Assembly (NCBI GenBank): GCA_964550205.1
Contig: CAZJYD010000006.1
Location: forward strand, 30,725-94,724
DNA: 64,000 nucleotides
Origin: an uncultured Bacteroidales bacterium
GTDB lineage: Bacteria > Bacteroidota > Bacteroidia > Bacteroidales > JAIOZK01
Reading direction: 5' to 3'
The position numbers and the translations under genes were made by a program. Positions 5,319-64,000 of this stretch are shown piece after piece (within the stretch, counting starts at the first letter, position 1; each line of letters begins with the position of its first letter). Under the pieces are notes generated by a model. That model did no database searches. It was not told the DNA's origin and worked only from the letters and a program-made list of their open reading frames with translations.

Positions 5319-5924
5319 ATGACATATGCAATTATAGCAATCACAGTAATTATTTCAATACTTGCATTTAATAACAGAGAAATATTTAACAAACTTCAAT
5401 TTAATGCATATGTAATAAAATACCGTAAAGAAGCCTGGCGTTTTTTTACTTATGGTTTAATACATGCAGGGTGGATACATCTCTTTATAAATATGTTTGT
5501 CCTTTATTCATTTGGCAGGACTGTTGAAAAAACTTTTGCTATAATATTCGATATCAAAGGCTATTTCTATTTTTTAATATTGTACGTTGGAGGTATAATA
5601 TTTTCCATACTATTCGACTTCAAAAAACATAAGGGGGATATTTATTATAATGCCGTTGGTGCTTCAGGCGCCGTTTCTGCTGTAGTATTTTCAAGTATTT
5701 TTATTTACCCTACCGGTTCTATTTATCTTTTTCTGATTCCCATACCAATTCCTTCTGTAGTGTTCGGGATACTTTATCTTATCTACTCAGCATACATGTC
5801 AAAGAGAGCTTCAGATAATATAGGTCATTCGGCGCATTTCTGGGGAGCTGTATTTGGAATATTATTTACAATAATACTAAAACCTGATTTGGTTAATAAC
5901 TTCTGGCATCAGATTTTTGGTTAA
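5319..5924 (+). CDS. rhomboid family intramembrane serine protease
   Basis: Multi-TM protein with the catalytic-serine motif GASGAVSAV and a downstream histidine motif HSAHFWGA. WRFFTYGLIH region typical of rhomboids. Confidence 0.8.
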   Translation: MTYAIIAITVIISILAFNNREIFNKLQFNAYVIKYRKEAWRFFTYGLIHAGWIHLFINMFVLYSFGRTVEKTFAIIFDIKGYFYFLILYVGGIIFSILFDFKKHKGDIYYNAVGASGAVSAVVFSSIFIYPTGSIYLFLIPIPIPSVVFGILYLIYSAYMSKRASDNIGHSAHFWGAVFGILFTIILKPDLVNNFWHQIFG

Positions 5925-5931
5925 AAGGATA

Positions 5932-6522
5932 TTAATTCAATGTAGGATCTGCAGGGAAATTAGGCCAAAAGGAATATTCATCACCAAGAACCTTTAATGA
6001 AGTGCTCCATAATTTGGTTGGGTCTGTTTTCAATAATTCTTTTGAAGGCATCTTTGATACAACCCATGAATTTTTATCCAGTTCCCCATCAAGCTGTTTT
6101 GAAGCCCAACCTGAGTATCCAATATAGAACCTTATATCTTTAGGATCAAGAATTTTTAAATTTATCATTTCTTTGATCTGCTCAATTTCACCTCCCCAAT
6201 ACAATCCTTCTTGTATTTCAGCACTATTATCGATTTTTTCACCAAGGGTGTGGATAAAGAATAAGCTGTCATTTTTTACAGGGCCTCCAAGAAACAATGG
6301 TGCATTAAATTCAGGAAAATCCTTTACTATTTCATTGAATTTAGCTTTAATAGGCTTATTCATAATAATTCCAAATGAACCCTCCTCATTATGTTCAGCA
6401 AGCAAAACTACTGAGCGTTTAAAATAGTAATCCAGAAGAAAAGGCTCCGAAATCAACAACTTTCCCTTTCCGGGAGCAATGTCATTAGTTTTAATTGTTA
6501 AGAGATCATTTAAATTAATCAT
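5932..6522 (-). CDS. YqgE/AlgH family protein (UPF0301)
   Basis: LLISEPFLLDYYFKRSVVLLAEHNEEGSFGIIMNKP and GGPV...FFIH...GYSGW segments match the family pattern. Confidence 0.8.
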   Translation of the reverse strand: MINLNDLLTIKTNDIAPGKGKLLISEPFLLDYYFKRSVVLLAEHNEEGSFGIIMNKPIKAKFNEIVKDFPEFNAPLFLGGPVKNDSLFFIHTLGEKIDNSAEIQEGLYWGGEIEQIKEMINLKILDPKDIRFYIGYSGWASKQLDGELDKNSWVVSKMPSKELLKTDPTKLWSTSLKVLGDEYSFWPNFPADPTLN

Positions 6523-6575
6523 ACCTTTTGATGATAAAAATTAATAATTGATTACTAATTTTGACCAATGATATA

Positions 6576-7973
6576 ATGACAAAAATAATACCAAATTGTA
6601 TGTTTGTAAAGGATAATTCCGATAAATATAATTTACTGAGAAAGAATTATTCTTATTTCGTCTTTGAAAACTTCGAAATCAAAAATAATGACTCCTCTTT
6701 AATTGTTAATTATAATTTTAATCTTGACAATAAATTCAAGTTCAACCATATAATAAAATTCCCAAAAAGGGATATTATTTCCAATATCGTATCAAATGAG
6801 GAAGAATTATCTTCGCTTTTTTTTCACCTTGGTATGATTGAACTAATAAGTTATTGGAAAGCTGCCTGCCCACCGAAATTGATTATAAAACCCTATGAGC
6901 TAACTACAGAACAAATCACATGGTGGAAAAAATTATACTACAAAGGCCTTGGAGAATTTTTCCACACAAACAAAATTTCACCTGATTATAACGAGTTCAT
7001 TAGTATTTATTCTATTGGCTCTCAGAAACCTGATAAATTGTTGATTAAACCACAGGATAAAACTATCGTACCGGTTGGTGGAGGAAAAGATTCTGTGGTA
7101 ACACTTGAAATATTAAAAAATGCCGGTATTGAAATTATTCAAATGTTGATCAATCCGCTAAAATCACAACAAGAAACTATTAAAAATGCCGGTCTGGCAT
7201 CTGAGAATTGTGTTATCATAAAACGCTATATCGATTCTCTGTTATTAAAGTTAAATGATAAAGGATTTCTTAACGGACATATACCATTTTCTGCTGTTGT
7301 GGCATTTATTGGCTTGATATCTTCTTACATTACCAAATCAAAATATATTGCATTGTCAAACGAAAGTAGTGCCAACGAACCAACTATTCCAGATACATCA
7401 ATAAATCATCAATATTCCAAATCATATGAATTTGAGAAAGATTTTCGAAACTATGTACAAGAATATATTTGTGATAACATTGAATATTTCAGTTTTCTCA
7501 GGCCTTTGAATGAACTTCAAATAGCCAAGATATTCTCAATTTTCAAGAAACATTTTAGTTCTTTCAGAAGCTGTAATGTTGGAAGTAAAAAAAACAAATG
7601 GTGTGGAGAATGTTCCAAATGCCTTTTTACTTACATAATTCTTTCACCCTTTGTTTCAAAGAAAGAACTTGCTGATATTTTTAATAAGAACATGCTGGAC
7701 GACATAAACTTAAAAAATACATTTGATCAATTAATAGGATTAACAAAAGAAAAACCTTTCGAATGTGTTGGAACAAAGAATGAAATAAATGCAGCTTTAA
7801 GCAAGTTGATCTTTAATAATGATAATAAACTTCCATATTTGCTCAGTTATTATAAAAATACTAGTAATAAACAATATATTGACAATTTAGAACAACTTCT
7901 CAATGATTATGATGAAAAAAACTTTTTACCAACAAAATTCAAAAACCTTTTAAGGAACACAATCAAATGGTAG
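6576..7973 (+). CDS. MurL-like protein (candidate UDP-MurNAc-L-Ala-L-Glu epimerase); PP-loop-like ATP-binding motif
   Basis: ~465-aa ORF whose stop overlaps the start of a MurD-family ligase by 7 nt. Contains VPVGGGKDSVVT (SGGxDS-like PP-loop) and a CGECSKC motif. Assignment rests on gene context and size, not a search. The track start at 6561 is TTG; the first ATG is at 6576. Confidence 0.45.
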   Translation: MTKIIPNCMFVKDNSDKYNLLRKNYSYFVFENFEIKNNDSSLIVNYNFNLDNKFKFNHIIKFPKRDIISNIVSNEEELSSLFFHLGMIELISYWKAACPPKLIIKPYELTTEQITWWKKLYYKGLGEFFHTNKISPDYNEFISIYSIGSQKPDKLLIKPQDKTIVPVGGGKDSVVTLEILKNAGIEIIQMLINPLKSQQETIKNAGLASENCVIIKRYIDSLLLKLNDKGFLNGHIPFSAVVAFIGLISSYITKSKYIALSNESSANEPTIPDTSINHQYSKSYEFEKDFRNYVQEYICDNIEYFSFLRPLNELQIAKIFSIFKKHFSSFRSCNVGSKKNKWCGECSKCLFTYIILSPFVSKKELADIFNKNMLDDINLKNTFDQLIGLTKEKPFECVGTKNEINAALSKLIFNNDNKLPYLLSYYKNTSNKQYIDNLEQLLNDYDEKNFLPTKFKNLLRNTIKW

Positions 7974-57623: not shown

Positions 57624-58082
57624 TCAAAAAAGCAATAACATACCAAATTGGCTTTCCTTTAGGAAAAAAATTGTTGAAGGATGCTCTCTTATAATTGTTT
57701 TTCTTGAAAAGATACCCGACAGAACATAAGCTGGTAATAATGAAATTAAAATTGTAATTATTATTAATAGAGTTCCTTTTTCTATACCCTCAATATAAAT
57801 CAGATAAAGATAAAAATAAAAATGCAATGAGGCAATAATCCAGACTATAAAAAAAGTAATCCATCGTTTATTTGTATTATTCGATCTCCTGTTATTTTTC
57901 AATGAGCAAAAGAAAATACTCACCAGAGCAGGTGCAAAAGCTCCGATACGCATAAGTGGCAGTTGTAATAAGAAACTATCAGGAAACAACAAATAAGCTA
58001 AACTCCACGCGATCCATGATAACAAATAAACAAACATAAAGAAAAATAGTATGTCATATTTCAGAAGTAATTTCATATGCAA
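57624..58082 (-). pseudogene. probable truncated CPBP-like (CAAX protease/Abi-type) membrane protein fragment
   Basis: The N-terminal layout (FFFMFVYLLSWIAWSL...GAFAPALVSIF) resembles CPBP intramembrane proteases, but the ORF ends after ~150 aa, before any EExxxR/H motif region. Confidence 0.3.
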
Positions 58083-58440
58083 TCAGGTACTTGATCTGCA
58101 AATCATATTTTTCATCATTTATCGTTTTAATCTGTTTAACAAATGATTTTTTATTTACTATAAAAGCCACAGCATATAATGGTATCTTTTGGTTGTAAAA
58201 GTTCTTTTTGAGATCAGTAATATGAAGCCTAATAACAAGGCTATCAAGAAGCCTTGCCAAATAGAATGAAGAAGGGTCCATCCGGTTAGCCTCAATGATT
58301 TCATCCAAAAATACTACATCTAAAATTCTTCCTTATTATTATTAATATAATGACTCCTGACTTTTTTATCCGCCTGATTTGCCAGTAAGAGGAGAAGGCG
58401 GAAATACACATAATCAGTACTCAATTTTCGTATTTAGTTA
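58054..58440 (-). pseudogene. possible remnant of a P-loop/AAA+ ATPase gene, broken across frames
   Basis: Minus-strand fragments in different frames: STDYVYFRLLLLLANQADKKVRSHYINNNKEEF(stop), then GRILDVVFLDEIIEANRMDPSSFYLARLLD... (Walker-B-like hhhhDE). No Walker A segment is present. Confidence 0.25.
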
Positions 58441-58549: not shown

Positions 58550-59056
58550 TTAGTTTTTCGCTTGCAAGGCTTCGTTTACTTTCGCCACATCATCATTCTT
58601 TATGATGAATCCCAAGCTAATGAAATCAATTTTCCATTGATCGTTTGTTTGCACTAAATGAGATGTTTGGCAAATAGGCATTTGCGGATTCCATTCCGGG
58701 AATGTGATTCTTTCCATAATCACAGCAGATTTACCACCGGGAGAAATTTTAATCTTTCTCATATCAACATTGTATGAATAAGCTGCGGTTGTATCGGCGA
58801 AAAATTGGGAACACATTTCCAGGAAAGCAGTTTTATCCATATTTTCTTCAGGGTCAGAACCGTAAAATTTGCCATCTTCAGTAGTAAGTTGATCTATCTT
58901 GTTCAGGTGATTACTATTCCAGGCTTCAAGATACTGATCTGCTATTTACTCAGTTGATTTAACCAATTCTGCTTGATCCTGATTGTGGGATTTCGTCCCG
59001 GAAGAGCAACCATACGCAAATAGAATTAAAATAATCACTAAAGCGTTTCTTTTGAC
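58550..59056 (-). pseudogene. NTF2/SnoaL-like lipoprotein gene with an in-frame stop and no canonical start
   Basis: Minus-strand reading: (ATT)VKRNALVIILILFAYGCSSGTKSHNQDQAELVKSTE-TAA-IADQYLEAWNSNHLNKIDQLTTEDGKFYGSDPEENMDKTAFLEM... continuing into the 96-aa ORF. The in-frame TAA is at 58946-58948. The signal peptide is preceded directly by the upstream gene's stop. Confidence 0.6.
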
Positions 59057-59059
59057 AAT

Positions 59060-60913
59060 TTACTTCCAAATTTTCAATTCTTGCCCATCTGCCCCAATAA
59101 AAACCACATAACTAATATGTGCTTCGTACTTTATCTTAACATTACCAATGATCGATTCTGCTTTTTTAACATTAAATGGCACACGCAGACTGACTCCTTC
59201 TGTTTTTATACCTGAATGTTCCACCAGGTTGATAAGGTAATAGTCTCCTTTGTCCTCACTGAAAAATCGTAATTTAGATAGCCCGTATCTGAAATCAGAG
59301 ATCTTGTCAAGTGTAGTTATCCATGTTCTTTCTTTTTTGACTTTTGAAACCAAGCTTTTTAAAGGAATTAAGGTCTCCTCGCTTCTTCCTGAATAACCAG
59401 GGTGCCCTATATATACCATAACTCCATTATAGGGTTTTACAGCTAATTTCCAGTAATTCAACAAATAATTTTGATATAGTTGAACCGCTTTTTGTATTTG
59501 TTTCGGATTTGTATCTTTTTCATTGATAAAGTCTTGGTAGAAGTAAAAATCATCATGGTAAACGGGTGATATTTCCATAATATCACTTGTAGTGAAAAAC
59601 TGGTCATTGGAAATGATAAGATTATACGGAACAACTGAACCATGAAAAAATGTAAGGTTGTTAGCTCCTATAGTCGACACGTATTTTACTCCTTTTTCAT
59701 TAAGAGCCATCAAGCCCCAATAACTGGGGGTTGTATAAGGGAATCTGAAACCTGTGAAGGTTTGCTTCCAGTGATTTTCATTTCTTATTATATCCATAAG
59801 TGCTCTTGAATAATCCAATCCAGGATATCTTTTGTATCCAAATCCACTTGAGCCCAGCAAAAGGTTCTCCCCCTTAATATAGTTATATGTATCCGAATTA
59901 ATAAGTCCATTAGTAAATAAAACAGGCTTTATTTTTTCTTTTTTGAGGTACTTAAATACTCTTTGATATTGTTCCACATCTCCGTTAGCATTCAGGCTTA
60001 CACAAAAAGCCTGTGCGTAGTTCTCAGGCCAGGGATTAAGCTCTAATTTTATATTATTTAGTTGTTTAAAGTCATCAATAACATAGTGGTAAAAATGCGA
60101 GATTTGTTGTGCACTGAATTCTCCTCCGCTTGTTACAGTTTGCAGGAAATCAGAGGTTGCCAGGAGGTAAGTTGTACCTTTTCCATGTCTGTTTTTTATT
60201 AATGCCGGCAAACTGTCTTCGTTCAATATCCAGTTACCCAATACTTCCATTGAATCAGAAAAAACAGAATCCATAACCAGTGCCCATTTACTGTGAGCTG
60301 GTTCTTCTCTGAAGCTTCCCTCAAAACGCCCTGGTATTGTAAAACTGATATGATGGTCGTCCATATACCGTTCTTCCATTGTTCCGCCTAAACACTCGGC
60401 CAGCGGGAAATTTTCAGGCGTTAGTCTTTTGAATACTGAAATCCGGTCGGTGCCGTCGTGGTAGTTTCTTCCGACATTGTCCCCTGCTATCAGAACACCG
60501 CCTGCAGCAACAAACTCACAAAGTATTTTCAATTCTTCATCCGACATAAACGACAATGAGTAGTTTCTGTCGTTATCATGGAAGCCCTGAGCAGTGGATA
60601 AAACAAGAATATTGTATTGAAACAGGGCCTCTTTGTCAAAGAGAATCTCGCGTGTTTCCATACTGGAAACAACACCTTTCTGGTTCATGGACTGAATTGC
60701 AACAATGATCCCTTCTGGTAAAACCCCGTTTCCGCCCTTTAGTCCTGTCGTAATGAATAAGGCTTTGGGAAGTTGCCTGAATAAAGGGATTTCCTTTTTT
60801 TCTGAAAAAGTATATTTGCTTTCTGTATTACAGGAGATTATTCCTGCGAGCACAATAATAGCTATGACAGAGAGCAGGGAAAAACCGTGTTTAAATCTGT
60901 CTTTCATTACCAT
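59060..60913 (-). CDS. lipoprotein, function unknown; N-terminal GATase1/ThuA-like segment and C-terminal deacetylase-fold-like segment
   Basis: Lipobox GIISC. YNILVLSTAQGF...LCEFVAAGGVLIAGDNVG. Later AFCVSLNANGD...KIKPVLFTNG and VMVYIGHPGY...WITTLDKISDF resemble the strand order of NodB-fold proteins without the canonical TFDD/HxxH residues. Overlaps the upstream gene by 7 nt. Confidence 0.45.
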   Translation of the reverse strand: MVMKDRFKHGFSLLSVIAIIVLAGIISCNTESKYTFSEKKEIPLFRQLPKALFITTGLKGGNGVLPEGIIVAIQSMNQKGVVSSMETREILFDKEALFQYNILVLSTAQGFHDNDRNYSLSFMSDEELKILCEFVAAGGVLIAGDNVGRNYHDGTDRISVFKRLTPENFPLAECLGGTMEERYMDDHHISFTIPGRFEGSFREEPAHSKWALVMDSVFSDSMEVLGNWILNEDSLPALIKNRHGKGTTYLLATSDFLQTVTSGGEFSAQQISHFYHYVIDDFKQLNNIKLELNPWPENYAQAFCVSLNANGDVEQYQRVFKYLKKEKIKPVLFTNGLINSDTYNYIKGENLLLGSSGFGYKRYPGLDYSRALMDIIRNENHWKQTFTGFRFPYTTPSYWGLMALNEKGVKYVSTIGANNLTFFHGSVVPYNLIISNDQFFTTSDIMEISPVYHDDFYFYQDFINEKDTNPKQIQKAVQLYQNYLLNYWKLAVKPYNGVMVYIGHPGYSGRSEETLIPLKSLVSKVKKERTWITTLDKISDFRYGLSKLRFFSEDKGDYYLINLVEHSGIKTEGVSLRVPFNVKKAESIIGNVKIKYEAHISYVVFIGADGQELKIWK

Positions 60914-63909
60914 ATTTTCTTAATCGTTAATTCTTTACCAGGTTTCGCATGCAACAATATTTTACCATCTCTGTTCTGATAAAAACCATCATCTTCCGAG
61001 CCTGAAACTTCTATTTTTGGAGCTTGTGTATAAAAGTAAAAACATAAAGGGTTATCAAAATTGCTTGTATCAAAAGGAATTTCGATAGTTACAAAAATGA
61101 ACTGACCAAATTCGTTTACCTTAAGATTAGCTTTGTCCCGTTCTTTCTGATATTGAAATACATCTTTTTCCGTAGCAATCCAGGAGTTGGTATTACGTGA
61201 CAGTCGCAGGTGTTTTTCCAGCTCTTTCTGGCTGATCTGACTGATCGCTTTTGACTTTTGTTCCGTTTCAGGTATAACCATACTTGTGATATCTTCATAC
61301 TGAAGAACAAGCCAACCTTTATTTTCTTTCAGTTTTTCCAGCACAGATTTAGCTGACAGATCGGAAGCCTTTACCATGATATTGCTCCTCGTTTCTTTGG
61401 TTTCAATTATATCATGACCCTTATTATGCAACTGAGCAACTTCATCAATCCCCATTGTTTTTAATCGTTTACCTGATTTAGTTATTGTATACCCTGCCTG
61501 TTCCTGGCGTAATTCCTTATCAATATTGAAGCTTGCCTTTTTTCTGTATTTATTCAGCAGAGGTTCGGCCAGTTCGTACTGACTGTATGCACTTTTATCA
61601 AACCTAAAGGAAACAGCATTCGAATGACCCATATAAAATTTACAGAGCTCAAAATAGTCTTCCACCGGCCTTGATAATCTCTGCAAAGGTTTATAAAAAT
61701 CATATTTAAAACAATATCTTAATGAATCATAAACAGGTTTTAATCTTTGTACAAAGGATGGTTCTTTCCATGTTTGCCATTCGTGTAAATAGGTACCATC
61801 ATCAGGAATCCTGTATAGTTCTTTGTTAGTTGTGTCTGTTACAAATATTTGTAATTCTATTCCCTTTGTTTTTAAACATTCAATTTCCGGTGTTTCTATA
61901 ACATTGTCCAAAACACATCCCTTTGAAGGATCAGTGACATTAAGCAAATGCCAGGTTAATCTCATTTCAAGTATATTTGTACTATCATTGTAGTACCAGT
62001 CGGCATTGGAGTATTGCGGCCGGCTATTGTTTCCAAAGATTAGCAGGCTTCGGTTCAACACGATCGAATCCACATGCTCACCTGTGAGGAATTCACGGCC
62101 TCTGTTGGTAAACATAAGTTGTTCAATAAATTTGGCATTTTCATTCGTAACCGATCTGTAATCCGGTATATTGTCATTGAAAATATCCGTATAAACTGAA
62201 TATGTTTCATCAACAAGTATTCGGGCGCTATCTTTATTGATGATCTCAATAAAAAATTCAAAACCATTTTCGAATCTTTCTTCGGTAAATGGAAGTCGAT
62301 GGTCTCCCTGTTCACCAGGCACAATATCAATGGCGATATAAATGTTTCTATTTTCAAAGTTCAGTTTTTCAACAGGCAGTGCTATATGAAAATAAGAAGG
62401 ATCACCACTGGTTCTGATACTTTGTAGCTTTCCTGCCTCTGCATGCTGCCAGTCATCCAAGATACCATCCAGTATTTTCCTCTCCGGTTCAAGCGCCATT
62501 ATACCAAAATTCTGTTCCGGATTTTCCATATTATGCCATAGTTTGCGATTTTCAAAAGGAATTTCAAAATCCATAACCAGCCAGTTGTGTTTAAACCATT
62601 CATCTGCCCATTCAAAATATATGGCACCAGCACAACCAGATTTAAAAATATTACGAGTAAGCCTGCTGTTTAAATGTGCATGCGATAATTCATCGTGCCC
62701 TCCTTGGTCCAGACCAGATGGGGTTTGATGGCTGTTGCCTCTGCTGGAAGGTAATCCATACTCTGCAATTACAAGAGGCATTCCCTGATGATGAACCTTA
62801 AGTTCGCTTAAATAAGCCCTGAAATTATCCTCTTCTCCTTCCTCATTCAAATAACCGGCATATTTAGGATCCAGATATATGAAGTCCGGGTAATAAGGAT
62901 ATACGTGGTAAGAAGCAAAAATACCCGGGAAAAATACAGGGCTGGCATGAAAATTCATAAAATCAACATACTCCAGGTCATTGTCATATTCTCTCACTCT
63001 TTCATTTTCAATAAATTCGGTATTATGAAAAAGAGGATCAAGAGGCAACCAGTTTACAAATGAAACCATGTGCTGCATACTATAGGTCATAGTTTCATAA
63101 AGTACGATAAAATCCATCATTCTGGCCAGCCAGACTTCCATAGGTGTGCCATAATGCACACCAATAAAATGGCCCTGGAAGTGATCAGAGGTATTCTGAT
63201 GGTTAGTTTTCACAACACCATCAGGTTCCCACTCCCGGCCAAAAAGAATACCGGCAACATATTGAGATACATCTGTTGAGTATATTCCGTGAGCTTTACC
63301 TTTTTTGGGTTTTAAAACCGCATTTCCATGCAGTACATCAATAACATCGGTTATTTCTTTTTGCATCGCCCTTGTGTAGTCTGCATCAAGATAATTATGT
63401 GTTTCCGGAATAGTTGCCCAAACACCCTGCAGAAGATAAAGTGGCTTATCGTGGTGTAATAAATTGTATTGGGCAAAGGCATTATAAAATTCAGGAGGAA
63501 GAATCGTGTATGTTCTAATGGTGTTGGCTTCCATTTTTCCGATCAATATTAACCATTCTAAATACTCTTCCATTGACATAGAGAACTCCGCAGGAAATTT
63601 TCCGGGCAAAGCCACGCCTATGTTTACGCCTTTCATTAAAAACCCCTCCCATTCTATCTCCCTGCTTTCATTATTCTTTCGGAGAGATTTAAAAGCATCA
63701 CCATCTGTTTGAAAATAATAATTAACCTCGTTGGCAAGGTTCTGCAATACTTCCAAAGGCAACTGACCAACCAGTGGGGCATTATCATCTTCGATATATT
63801 CTTTGACGATTTTTTCTGAACGAATGGATTGCTCGTACCTCAGCATTTCATATACAATATAGCTTAATAATGCTATAAGTATCAGTACAATTATTACTTT
63901 TCCTTTCAT
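60907..63909 (-). CDS. membrane-anchored 1000-aa protein: clan GH-A (GH17-like) glycoside hydrolase-like domain plus degenerate CE4 (NodB)-like C-terminal domain
   Basis: N-terminal TM helix. KGVNIGVALPG...IRTY. Candidate acid/base in LFGREWEPD and nucleophile in PLVIAEYGLPSSRG (compare GH17 ..SE.GWPS.G). C-terminal AVSFRFDKSAYSQYELAEPLLNKYRKKASFNI...HNKGHDIIE...WLVLQYEDI follows NodB-fold order with substituted catalytic residues. Confidence 0.5.
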   Translation of the reverse strand: MKGKVIIVLILIALLSYIVYEMLRYEQSIRSEKIVKEYIEDDNAPLVGQLPLEVLQNLANEVNYYFQTDGDAFKSLRKNNESREIEWEGFLMKGVNIGVALPGKFPAEFSMSMEEYLEWLILIGKMEANTIRTYTILPPEFYNAFAQYNLLHHDKPLYLLQGVWATIPETHNYLDADYTRAMQKEITDVIDVLHGNAVLKPKKGKAHGIYSTDVSQYVAGILFGREWEPDGVVKTNHQNTSDHFQGHFIGVHYGTPMEVWLARMMDFIVLYETMTYSMQHMVSFVNWLPLDPLFHNTEFIENERVREYDNDLEYVDFMNFHASPVFFPGIFASYHVYPYYPDFIYLDPKYAGYLNEEGEEDNFRAYLSELKVHHQGMPLVIAEYGLPSSRGNSHQTPSGLDQGGHDELSHAHLNSRLTRNIFKSGCAGAIYFEWADEWFKHNWLVMDFEIPFENRKLWHNMENPEQNFGIMALEPERKILDGILDDWQHAEAGKLQSIRTSGDPSYFHIALPVEKLNFENRNIYIAIDIVPGEQGDHRLPFTEERFENGFEFFIEIINKDSARILVDETYSVYTDIFNDNIPDYRSVTNENAKFIEQLMFTNRGREFLTGEHVDSIVLNRSLLIFGNNSRPQYSNADWYYNDSTNILEMRLTWHLLNVTDPSKGCVLDNVIETPEIECLKTKGIELQIFVTDTTNKELYRIPDDGTYLHEWQTWKEPSFVQRLKPVYDSLRYCFKYDFYKPLQRLSRPVEDYFELCKFYMGHSNAVSFRFDKSAYSQYELAEPLLNKYRKKASFNIDKELRQEQAGYTITKSGKRLKTMGIDEVAQLHNKGHDIIETKETRSNIMVKASDLSAKSVLEKLKENKGWLVLQYEDITSMVIPETEQKSKAISQISQKELEKHLRLSRNTNSWIATEKDVFQYQKERDKANLKVNEFGQFIFVTIEIPFDTSNFDNPLCFYFYTQAPKIEVSGSEDDGFYQNRDGKILLHAKPGKELTIKKIW

Positions 63910-63910
63910 A

Positions 63911-64000
63911 TTAAAAACTTTTTGAAAGGTTTATAAATCCAATCCAGTTTTCATAATAAGGATTCTTAAAGCGTGATCCGCTAAGTGAAACCGAAAATGA
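63911..64000 (-). CDS. 3' end of an upstream co-oriented gene (partial; function not determinable)
   Basis: Open minus-strand frame from the window edge (...SFSVSLSGSRFKNPYYENWIGFINLSKSF) to TAA at 63911-63913, 1 nt before the ATG of the 1000-aa gene. Confidence 0.6.
   Translation of the reverse strand, partial: SFSVSLSGSRFKNPYYENWIGFINLSKSF

Follow-up and report, generated by a model that had tools for sequence, protein, structure and literature searches.

Genes at the locus

The DNA analysed here (the window, 64,000 nucleotides of contig CAZJYD010000006.1 from an uncultured Bacteroidales bacterium) ends in a compact set of minus-strand genes. The subject of this report is the pair of envelope proteins encoded there: a protein of 1000 amino acids (aa) with a glycoside hydrolase (GH)-like barrel, termed the giant, and a lipoprotein of 617 aa, termed the partner. 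A preliminary description had presented them as a candidate uncharacterised exopolysaccharide-processing system, following the hydrolase-plus-deacetylase logic of PelA and PgaB.

The list of open reading frames (ORFs) places the giant at 60907-63909 and the partner at 59060-60913. From 64000 to 63911 the minus strand is an open frame (SFSVSLSGSRFKNPYYENWIGFINLSKSF, then a stop), a third gene running off the window edge; its TAA occupies 63913-63911, leaving a 1-nt gap before the giant ATG at 63909. The giant stop codon (60907-60909) overlaps the first ATG of the partner (60913-60911), the two genes sharing 7 nt; the gap and overlap reported in the preliminary description thus hold to the nucleotide. 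A second in-frame ATG, two codons further on, is the start used in the database copy of the partner (P0121, 615 aa) and leaves a 1-nt overlap with the giant stop; either start would be compatible with translational coupling. The contig carrying the partner's database twin (L082, 7.6 kb) begins inside the giant gene. The G+C content across the window is ~30-38%, the locus itself being unremarkable, and a scan for a terminator downstream of the partner found none. The features are as follows.

63911-64000, minus strand: 3' end of the upstream gene (last 29 codons and stop), C-terminus of a tetratricopeptide repeat (TPR) exporter with a predicted outer-membrane beta-barrel
60907-63909, minus strand: giant gene, 1000 aa, with anchor, predicted clan GH-A barrel, beta-rich domain, degenerate domain like carbohydrate esterase family 4 (CE4), and C-terminal beta-sandwich
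63814-63906, minus strand: giant N-terminal transmembrane/signal-anchor helix, aa 2-32 (AlphaFold2 (AF2) helix; hydrophobic in the family consensus)
62485-63636, minus strand: giant (beta/alpha)8 barrel of clan GH-A type, aa ~92-475 (Foldseek against PDB)
63226-63234, minus strand: codons of the giant candidate acid/base E228 (or E226), after strand 4 (AF2 strands)
62761-62763, minus strand: codon of the giant candidate nucleophile E383, end of strand 7 (AF2 strands)
61741-62415, minus strand: giant beta-rich domain, aa ~499-723, part of the core aa ~87-735 (AF2 secondary structure)
61132-61656, minus strand: giant degenerate CE4/NodB-like domain, aa ~752-926 (family profile against PDB)
60913-61128, minus strand: giant C-terminal beta-sandwich, aa 928-999 (AF2 model)
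59060-60913, minus strand: partner gene, 617-aa lipoprotein of PelA/Agd3/NDST1-type layout (ORF, AF2, Foldseek)
60830-60913, minus strand: partner signal peptide with lipobox I-I-S-C28 (sequence and conservation)
60059-60775, minus strand: partner N-domain, aa ~47-285, like class-I glutamine amidotransferases (GATase)/GH42M (Rossmann/GATase-like; Pfam below threshold, Foldseek)
59273-60031, minus strand: partner CE4-like (beta/alpha)7 barrel, aa ~295-547 (profile against PDB, BLASTP to a canonical paralog)
59063-59269, minus strand: partner C-terminal beta-sandwich, aa 549-617 (AF2 model, hhalign)

Synthase and predicted exporter genes

The ortholog locus L001 (668-kb contig; giant P0002, 64% identical) has the order glycosyltransferase family 2 (GT2) synthase, TPR protein, giant and partner (490, 513, 1016 and 611 aa as called), with genes that overlap or abut. 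The 29 C-terminal residues of the cut ORF are identical to the end of the L001 TPR protein at 20 positions, so the part of the four-gene operon inside the window amounts to its final 2.03 genes. The preliminary description had spoken of at least three genes and had placed a synthase or exporter beyond the edge; the packing stands, the full count in related loci is four, and both upstream genes are present in L001.

The GT2 orthologs carry the motifs of processive synthases (VPAYNEE, NDGS.D, IDADS, TVCEDME and QRxRWHQG, i.e. the D, DAD, TVCED, QRxRW set) and match the Pfam families Glycos_transf_2, Glyco_tranf_2_3 and Chitin_synth_2. Orthologous loci hence contain the inner-membrane processive GT2 by which synthase-dependent systems are recognised. 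Its best NCBIfam match is PgaC_IcaA (TIGR03937; 126 bits, E=1.8e-36, equivalog cutoff 422), with cellulose synthase at 50 bits and NodC at 38 bits. No PilZ or MshEN domain for cyclic di-GMP was detected on the GT2 with Pfam. The GT2 orthologs (L001:8440-8503, L002-L023) also share a conserved, basic C-terminal tail, W(K/N)KFERKG(I/V), still recognisable in Gemmatimonadota as WGAMERRGV, which might be a regulatory or partner-binding element.

The TPR protein of L001 comprises a signal peptide, ~5 TPRs (Pfam) and a ~300-aa C-terminal domain; the protein matches the TPR region of PgaA at E=2e-13. Profile searches gave no Pfam or PDB match to the C-terminal domain. Since this domain shows a dominant period-2 hydrophobicity, is rich in aromatic residues (18.7%) and ends in Phe in 10 of 14 orthologs, we infer an outer-membrane beta-barrel, which would make the protein a short exporter of the PgaA/PelB/BcsC type.

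Five close loci were scanned with Rfam for riboswitches ahead of the synthase gene; no riboswitch was detected, and the only hit was a tRNA gene (L001:6175-6248, 70 bits). It lies between an unrelated upstream gene and the synthase, within a 1.3-kb ORF-free stretch (5730-7033). Directly upstream of the GT2 in L006 (2438-5431), and equivalently in L007, is a 997-aa protein that by eye appears to join a receiver domain to a phosphoenolpyruvate/pyruvate-binding enzyme resembling pyruvate phosphate dikinase (PPDK-like) and could be a regulator.

The giant and its GH-A barrel

No Pfam or NCBIfam family matches the giant at E<=1. Its AF2 model, built from 51 homologs (predicted local distance difference test, pLDDT, 85; predicted TM-score, pTM, 0.86), contains the helix at residues 2-32 as the single N-terminal anchor that had been described earlier; the topology is presumably N-in, periplasm-out. 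Comparison of the barrel with the PDB by Foldseek gives GH157 (9fz9) as the best match (E=7e-10), followed by GH2, GH17 (6fcg), GH5 and GH140, with identities to the fold matches of 7-19%. The 50 top-ranking fold matches of the giant in the PDB include none of PgaB, PelA, Sph3 and Ega3, and a profile of the 51 homologs found no GH sequence match in the PDB at E<=10. Judged from the model, the barrel belongs to clan GH-A by fold and lies outside the sequence families tested (Pfam, NCBIfam, PDB sequences).

The segments GREWEPD and VIAEYGLPSSRG (including VIAEYG), named as catalytic candidates in the preliminary description, do occur in the giant, with key residues that do not vary. In the AF2 model, strand 4 (218-223) is followed by G-R-E226-W-E228-P, and strand 7 (379-384) contains E383. 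R225, E226, W227, E228, P229 and E383, together with R132, H335 and Y337, are unchanged in 82 of 82 homologs from several phyla, spanning 34-64% identity. As read from the predicted strand ends, E226/E228 and E383 occupy the canonical acid/base and nucleophile positions of clan GH-A; invariant Glu at these positions predicts a retaining mechanism. The barrel is probably an active sugar-cutting enzyme of a new family.

The CE4-like tail of the giant

Behind the beta-rich domain, the profile of the giant family matches the CE4 structure 6dq3 (E=4e-5) and, weakly, the N-domain of PgaB (4u10, E=0.044). The earlier proposal of a hydrolase with a deacetylase-like tail therefore holds at the level of fold. 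Some relatives score above the PF01522 threshold in the tail, including P0054 and P0057, which have canonical motifs; P0054, P0057 and P0070 carry the canonical set SLSFDDAG, GGHEISLHGLLH and FSYHH. Such tails occur in only 3 of 51 sampled members, most having FDNAG, GHEIALQ and YHH. In the window giant, motif 1 reads RFDKS (canonical CE4: TFDD), motif 2 reads GHDIIETKE with no HxxxH, and motif 5 reads QYED with no His, placing this tail among the most degenerate of the 51 sequences. Going by these motifs, it is dead by the canonical metal-dependent mechanism.

Alignment of the giant with the partner by hhalign joins their last helix and beta-sandwich (E=1.5e-4, probability 51%), and the same type of terminal sandwich ends the giant, the partner and stand-alone CE4 paralogs (the latter found by BLAST against giant tails). 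The giant tail and the partner barrel were considered as close paralogs; this was not supported, as only the last helix and beta-sandwich align.

The match to PgaB bears on whether the locus could be a true poly-N-acetylglucosamine (PNAG) system, that is, a divergent pgaABC with the giant as PgaB ortholog. A hydrolase and a CE4 domain in one periplasmic protein is the logic of PgaB, and the best NCBIfam match of the GT2 and the TPR match to PgaA point the same way. Nevertheless, the GT2 reaches 126 bits against an equivalog cutoff of 422, the GH-A barrel has no sequence match to GH153 and PgaB is outside the 50 best fold matches; further, the hydrolase and CE4 domains stand in the opposite order, the giant is membrane-anchored where PgaB is a lipoprotein, no PgaD was seen, and an extra PelA-like lipoprotein is present. 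The PgaC score and the architecture of PgaB led to rejection of a pga system, a reading that is very unlikely.

The partner lipoprotein

The partner signal peptide ends in the lipobox IIS-C28 (general rule [LVI][ASTVI][GAS]C), and C28 is at least 90% conserved. Its AF2 model (pLDDT 88.9, pTM 0.88) matches the CE4-fold structure 3rxz in Foldseek (E=6e-11; target-normalised TM-score, TMt, 0.67), as well as HP0310 and PuuE; further matches are GH42 "trimerisation" (GATase-like) domains and human NDST1 (9f6z). The best whole-chain match is PelA (9cgy), with a query-normalised TM-score (TMq) of 0.46 over 704 columns. An alpha/beta N-domain followed by a (beta/alpha)7 barrel is the fold of the CE4/CE18/CE21 type, and on this model the partner is PelA-like without the hydrolase domain.

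The N-domain matches Pfam Glyco_hydro_42M below threshold (E=0.004) and more strongly in orthologs. Of the partner's 42 invariant columns many are polar; those in the N-domain include H112-D113-x-D115-R116 (window 60568-60582), R88, R149, N150, D156, R157 and E181. The paralog with canonical CE4 motifs has HDNPQ where the partner has HDxDR; restriction of HDxDR to the non-canonical clade suggests that this clade may have gained a new functional site.

The barrel profile matches 7bly in the PDB (E=1.7e-4), and its best alignment to SpPgdA is with the D275N mutant (2c1i), TFND facing SLNA; this substitution reportedly abolishes SpPgdA activity. By BLASTP, the canonical paralog L023:1003-2781 is 33% identical to the partner (E=2e-112), and its CQTFDDGG and GHSYNH (HSxxH) correspond to CVSLNANG and SSGFGY. 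N308-A309 therefore stand in place of the catalytic Asp-Asp, and S356 and Y360 in place of the two metal-binding His; N308 is invariant in 51 of 51 sequences. R390 (motif 3), D454-D455 and H504 (motif 5) are kept. Since both CE4-like modules of the window lack the catalytic base and the Asp-His-His triad, they are probably pseudoenzymes. With this loss, the proposed analogy to PelA and PgaB survives as architecture but probably not as deacetylase chemistry.

It is also conceivable, though unlikely, that one or both modules are still enzymes of a non-canonical, possibly metal-independent kind, and that the window operon still modifies its polymer. The partner might use N308, R390, D454, D455 and H504, or the N-domain HDxDR site specific to its clade; the number of invariant polar columns fits such a role. 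Its top structural neighbours include the PuuE-like subgroup (3cl6, 1z7a, 3rxz), which contains a metal-independent enzyme. PelA itself departs from the CE4 rules in having no motif 3 Arg, but its mutants D528A, D530A, H600A and H604A are inactive (PMC12022489). The partner has substitutions at the base Asp and at each of the three metal ligands, and the giant tail is as degenerate as described above.

Conservation, gene order and fusions

Homologs of the giant fill more than 4,137 clusters (at 90% identity), nearly all labelled hypothetical. Gene context was examined in 162 fetched loci. The four-gene order recurs at 40-64% protein identity in essentially all related loci with enough flank, so the arrangement is more than chance; it is kept in Bacteroidales, Flavobacteriales, Saprospiraceae, Ignavibacteria and Cloacimonadota, while in WOR-3-like genomes the partner is relocated upstream. 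The GT2 lies upstream in all loci of the Fibrobacteres-Chlorobi-Bacteroidetes (FCB) group with enough flank. The co-occurrence of giant and partner, which the preliminary description had proposed to survey, extends to every FCB-type locus that offers 2 kb or more of downstream flank, except two (L022, L134). The single clear departure from the cassette is L022:1160-4345: the giant homolog there is full-length and has the tail, and its 13.7-kb contig shows neither GT2 nor TPR nor partner genes in the vicinity.

The conserved core of the giant spans residues ~87-735, as delimited by tblastn/BLAST coverage in non-FCB loci, and an exhaustive HMMER scan found ~1,400 representative clusters (50% identity) that match it. 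The core occurs with neither tail nor partner in Gemmatimonadota, a Polarisedimenticolia (Acidobacteriota) metagenome-assembled genome, Eisenbacteria, Vulcanimicrobiota and one cyanobacterium. Of 57 non-FCB loci, 51 have a gene for a TPR protein with a C-terminal domain immediately after the core, and 17 have a GT2 within 7 kb of it. P0389 is a GT2::core fusion, and P0258, P0263, P0272, P0291 and P0293 are TPR::core or TPR::core::TPR fusions. Gene order conserved across phyla, together with these physical fusions, establishes synthase, hydrolase-like core and TPR exporter as a functional triad. The system extends beyond Bacteroidota, the only phylum that the preliminary description had named.

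Several core proteins of ~1060-1090 aa (P0273, P0288, P0294, P0296 and others) bear a ~400-aa N-terminal extension with no Pfam match. A ~420-aa protein, by eye of HEAT-repeat type, lies ~1 kb downstream of the core/TPR genes at L059:14475-15746 and in 16 other non-FCB loci, which are of Gemmatimonadota type. The genes downstream of the cassette differ between loci. Two alpha-amylase-family genes (one SusG-like) follow it at L001:15439-19665 and are absent from the window. Downstream of the operon, the window has two overlapping TTG-start ORFs (57624-58308, minus strand) of 152 aa (very hydrophobic) and 84 aa, and a 96-aa ORF at 58550-58840; these belong to no obvious family and are not conserved beside the cassette elsewhere.

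GH-A folds are common in polysaccharide utilisation loci (PULs), and this, with the alpha-amylase-family genes of L001, is what a catabolic reading can draw on, in which the genes would degrade a foreign polysaccharide. That reading is scarcely credible: no SusC/SusD genes are present, downstream genes vary between loci, the inner-membrane anchor would place the enzyme in the periplasm beside the synthase, and the genes are tightly linked, even fused, to a processive GT2 and a TPR exporter. The PUL reading was rejected on the lack of SusC/SusD and on this linkage to synthase and exporter.

Deacetylation in sister lineages and the nature of the polymer

When neighbouring genes were clustered, a protein of ~359 aa emerged immediately upstream of the GT2 (for example L009 5910-6989); it has canonical CE4 motifs (PF01522, E=7e-20) and shares its terminal helix and beta-sandwich with the tail of the giant. 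Canonical paralogs of the partner also occur in L017, L023, L093, L096, L109 and L111, those in L017 and L023 keeping the Asp-His-His triad. A census of 60 FCB-type loci distinguished three configurations: a canonical CE4 fused to the giant (A, ~20 loci, none with a stand-alone copy), a degenerate fused copy with a stand-alone canonical CE4 (B, ~15 loci), and a degenerate copy only (C, ~14 loci, including L001-L003, L006 and L007). By similarity, the window would belong to configuration C, and no other homolog of the stand-alone CE4 was found within the 64-kb window.

The mutual exclusivity of A and B implies that most lineages are under selection to keep deacetylase activity, which argues for an acetylated polymer, most simply one of N-acetylhexosamine. 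On this comparison of motifs, an N-acetylhexosamine polymer appears most likely, deacetylation appears to be part of the ancestral system, and the window's clade appears to have lost the canonical CE4 from its operon. The configurations form an evolutionary series, from a fused canonical enzyme through duplication with a stand-alone canonical copy to dead modules only; this active-to-dead series can be used to test non-catalytic roles of PelA- and PgaB-like modules.

The product could instead be a neutral beta-glucan (curdlan-, laminarin- or mixed-linkage-like), with the GH-A barrel as a beta-glucanase or transglycosylase and the CE4-like modules serving only to bind carbohydrate. The GH157 and GH17 proteins that head the fold matches are endo-beta-1,3-glucanases, both CE4-like modules of the window are catalytically degenerate, and Gemmatimonadota versions have no CE4 modules. 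The P0389 fusion recalls NdvB, a GH17+GT2 protein; polymers are remodelled by GH17 in NdvB and by GH72 in fungi. However, likeness of fold within clan GH-A does not predict substrate, and the GT2 scores higher as a PNAG synthase (126 bits) than as a cellulose synthase (50 bits) and matches Chitin_synth_2. Canonical CE4 is kept in ~35 of ~50 FCB-type loci in mutually exclusive forms, which indicates selection for deacetylation of the product, and the partner has the architecture of hexosamine-polymer deacetylases (PelA, Agd3, NDST1). A beta-glucan is therefore improbable.

Proposed mechanism

We read the region, with a probability of about 0.7, as part of a synthase-dependent exopolysaccharide operon of four genes, namely its distal half, which would serve periplasmic processing. 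The operon would work as follows. An inner-membrane processive GT2, encoded just beyond the window edge, would polymerise the sugar (most likely N-acetylhexosamine) and push the chain into the periplasm. The giant would be anchored beside it through the N-terminal helix, a proximity that the P0389 fusion supports and an arrangement recalling BcsB and BcsZ. Its GH-A barrel would act as a retaining endo-glycosidase or transglycosylase (E228 or E226 as acid/base, E383 as nucleophile) that trims or releases the chain. Trimming or release is the role of BcsZ, the GH153 domain of PgaB, the GH166 domain of PelA and AlgL in known systems. The dead CE4 tail of the giant and the PelA-like lipoprotein may bind or scaffold the polymer, dock to the exporter TPRs and hand the chain over, and the C-terminal beta-barrel of the exporter would take it across the outer membrane. 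Sister lineages would deacetylate the polymer by a canonical CE4, fused to the giant or separate.

Several points weigh against this scheme. The synthase gene of this very organism lies beyond the window edge, the GT2 being known from orthologous loci, and the exporter barrel is read from periodicity and a C-terminal Phe only. The catalytic positions of the giant come from predicted strand ends, not from structural superposition, and the best fold matches of its barrel are beta-1,3-glucanases, not hexosaminidases. The invariant N308, R390, E447, D454, D455 and H504 of the partner, with HDxDR, could mean non-canonical activity; a canonical deacetylase could be encoded elsewhere in the genome; and the versions in Gemmatimonadota have no CE4 module at all.

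More tentatively, the core (aa ~87-735) may found a new clan GH-A family and, with a PgaC-like GT2 and a short TPR-porin, constitute an unrecognised exopolysaccharide archetype across Bacteroidota, Ignavibacteria, Cloacimonadota, WOR-3, Gemmatimonadota, Acidobacteriota and others, in which the deacetylase modules of the window's clade would be pseudoenzymes escorting a fully acetylated polymer. If true, this clade is a natural experiment in modification enzymes becoming export chaperones. Synthase-dependent exopolysaccharides such as cellulose, PNAG, Pel and alginate hold a central place in biofilm biology; to our knowledge, however, they have been studied almost only in Proteobacteria and Firmicutes, and we know of no characterised matrix polymer from the environmentally dominant phyla that carry the cassette. 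The probable new GH family could provide a biofilm-dispersing enzyme and a CAZy entry, and the gene fusions specify which parts touch.

Comparison with known systems

No description of a counterpart to the cassette was found in the literature. These phyla are not mentioned in the operon-classification paper PMC7112194, and the epsSMASH preprint does not describe the cassette; it reports that 62-96% of detected exopolysaccharide clusters are uncharacterised, which tempers surprise at an undescribed one.

With PgaABCD (PNAG; E. coli, Bordetella) the system shares a processive GT2 nearest to PgaC/IcaA, an exporter of TPRs and a (predicted) beta-barrel as in PgaA, and, as in PgaB, a GH barrel and a CE4 domain in one periplasmic protein, the CE4 being canonical in sister lineages. 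It differs in the synthase score (126 against 422 bits), in having a GH-A barrel where PgaB has GH153, in the order of domains (GH then CE4, whereas PgaB has CE4 then GH) and in the anchor (membrane helix here, lipid in PgaB). No PgaD was seen, a PelA-like lipoprotein is added, and both CE4 modules of the window lack catalytic residues.

PelA consists of GH166, a mixed alpha/beta domain, a CE21 deacetylase and a beta-rich domain, and an AF2 model of PelAB predicts contacts of its alpha/beta and deacetylase domains with PelB (PMC12022489). The partner superposes on PelA over the whole chain, its alpha/beta domain, (beta/alpha)7 barrel of deacetylase fold and beta-rich domain succeeding one another as they do in PelA, and both systems have a TPR-porin (predicted here) alongside and combine a hydrolase with a deacetylase fold. 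Here, however, the hydrolase is a separate polypeptide of a different clan, the partner is a lipoprotein and the synthase is a GT2, in contrast to the GT4 PelF complex. The catalytic H526, D528, D530, H600 and H604 of PelA have no equivalents in the partner (N308, A309, S356, Y360).

In NDST1 and Agd3, a non-catalytic N-domain precedes the deacetylase (PMC10864358). The fungal galactosaminogalactan deacetylase Agd3 (CE18) and the N-terminal half of human NDST1 share with the partner the Rossmann-like N-domain followed by a (beta/alpha)7 deacetylase barrel. Unlike them, the window partner has lost the triad and the base, has no sulfotransferase domain and is a bacterial lipoprotein in a synthase-dependent operon.

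Clan GH-A enzymes (the GH157 endo-beta-1,3-glucanase LaGH157, GH17, GH2, GH5) resemble the giant in the (beta/alpha)8 barrel, the Glu residues that follow strand 4 and close strand 7, the conserved Arg on strand 2, the His/Tyr after strand 6 and the beta-sandwich after the barrel. The nearest families are only 11-14% identical and have N-E-P where the giant has R-E-W-E-P at strand 4; they are secreted catabolic enzymes, whereas the giant barrel sits in what appears to be a membrane-anchored biosynthetic protein.

The accessory proteins of the cellulose (BcsA/BcsC/BcsZ) and NfrB/NfrA/YbcH systems are unrelated in sequence to those described here, whose GT2 moreover has no detected PilZ or MshEN domain. 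All nonetheless follow one general plan, in which an inner-membrane GT2 is combined with an exporter of TPR-porin type (predicted here) and with a periplasmic protein, either accessory or hydrolytic. The cassette, a widespread but unstudied machine for the synthesis and export of what is probably a sugar polymer, would thus extend the known synthase-dependent paradigm without overturning it.

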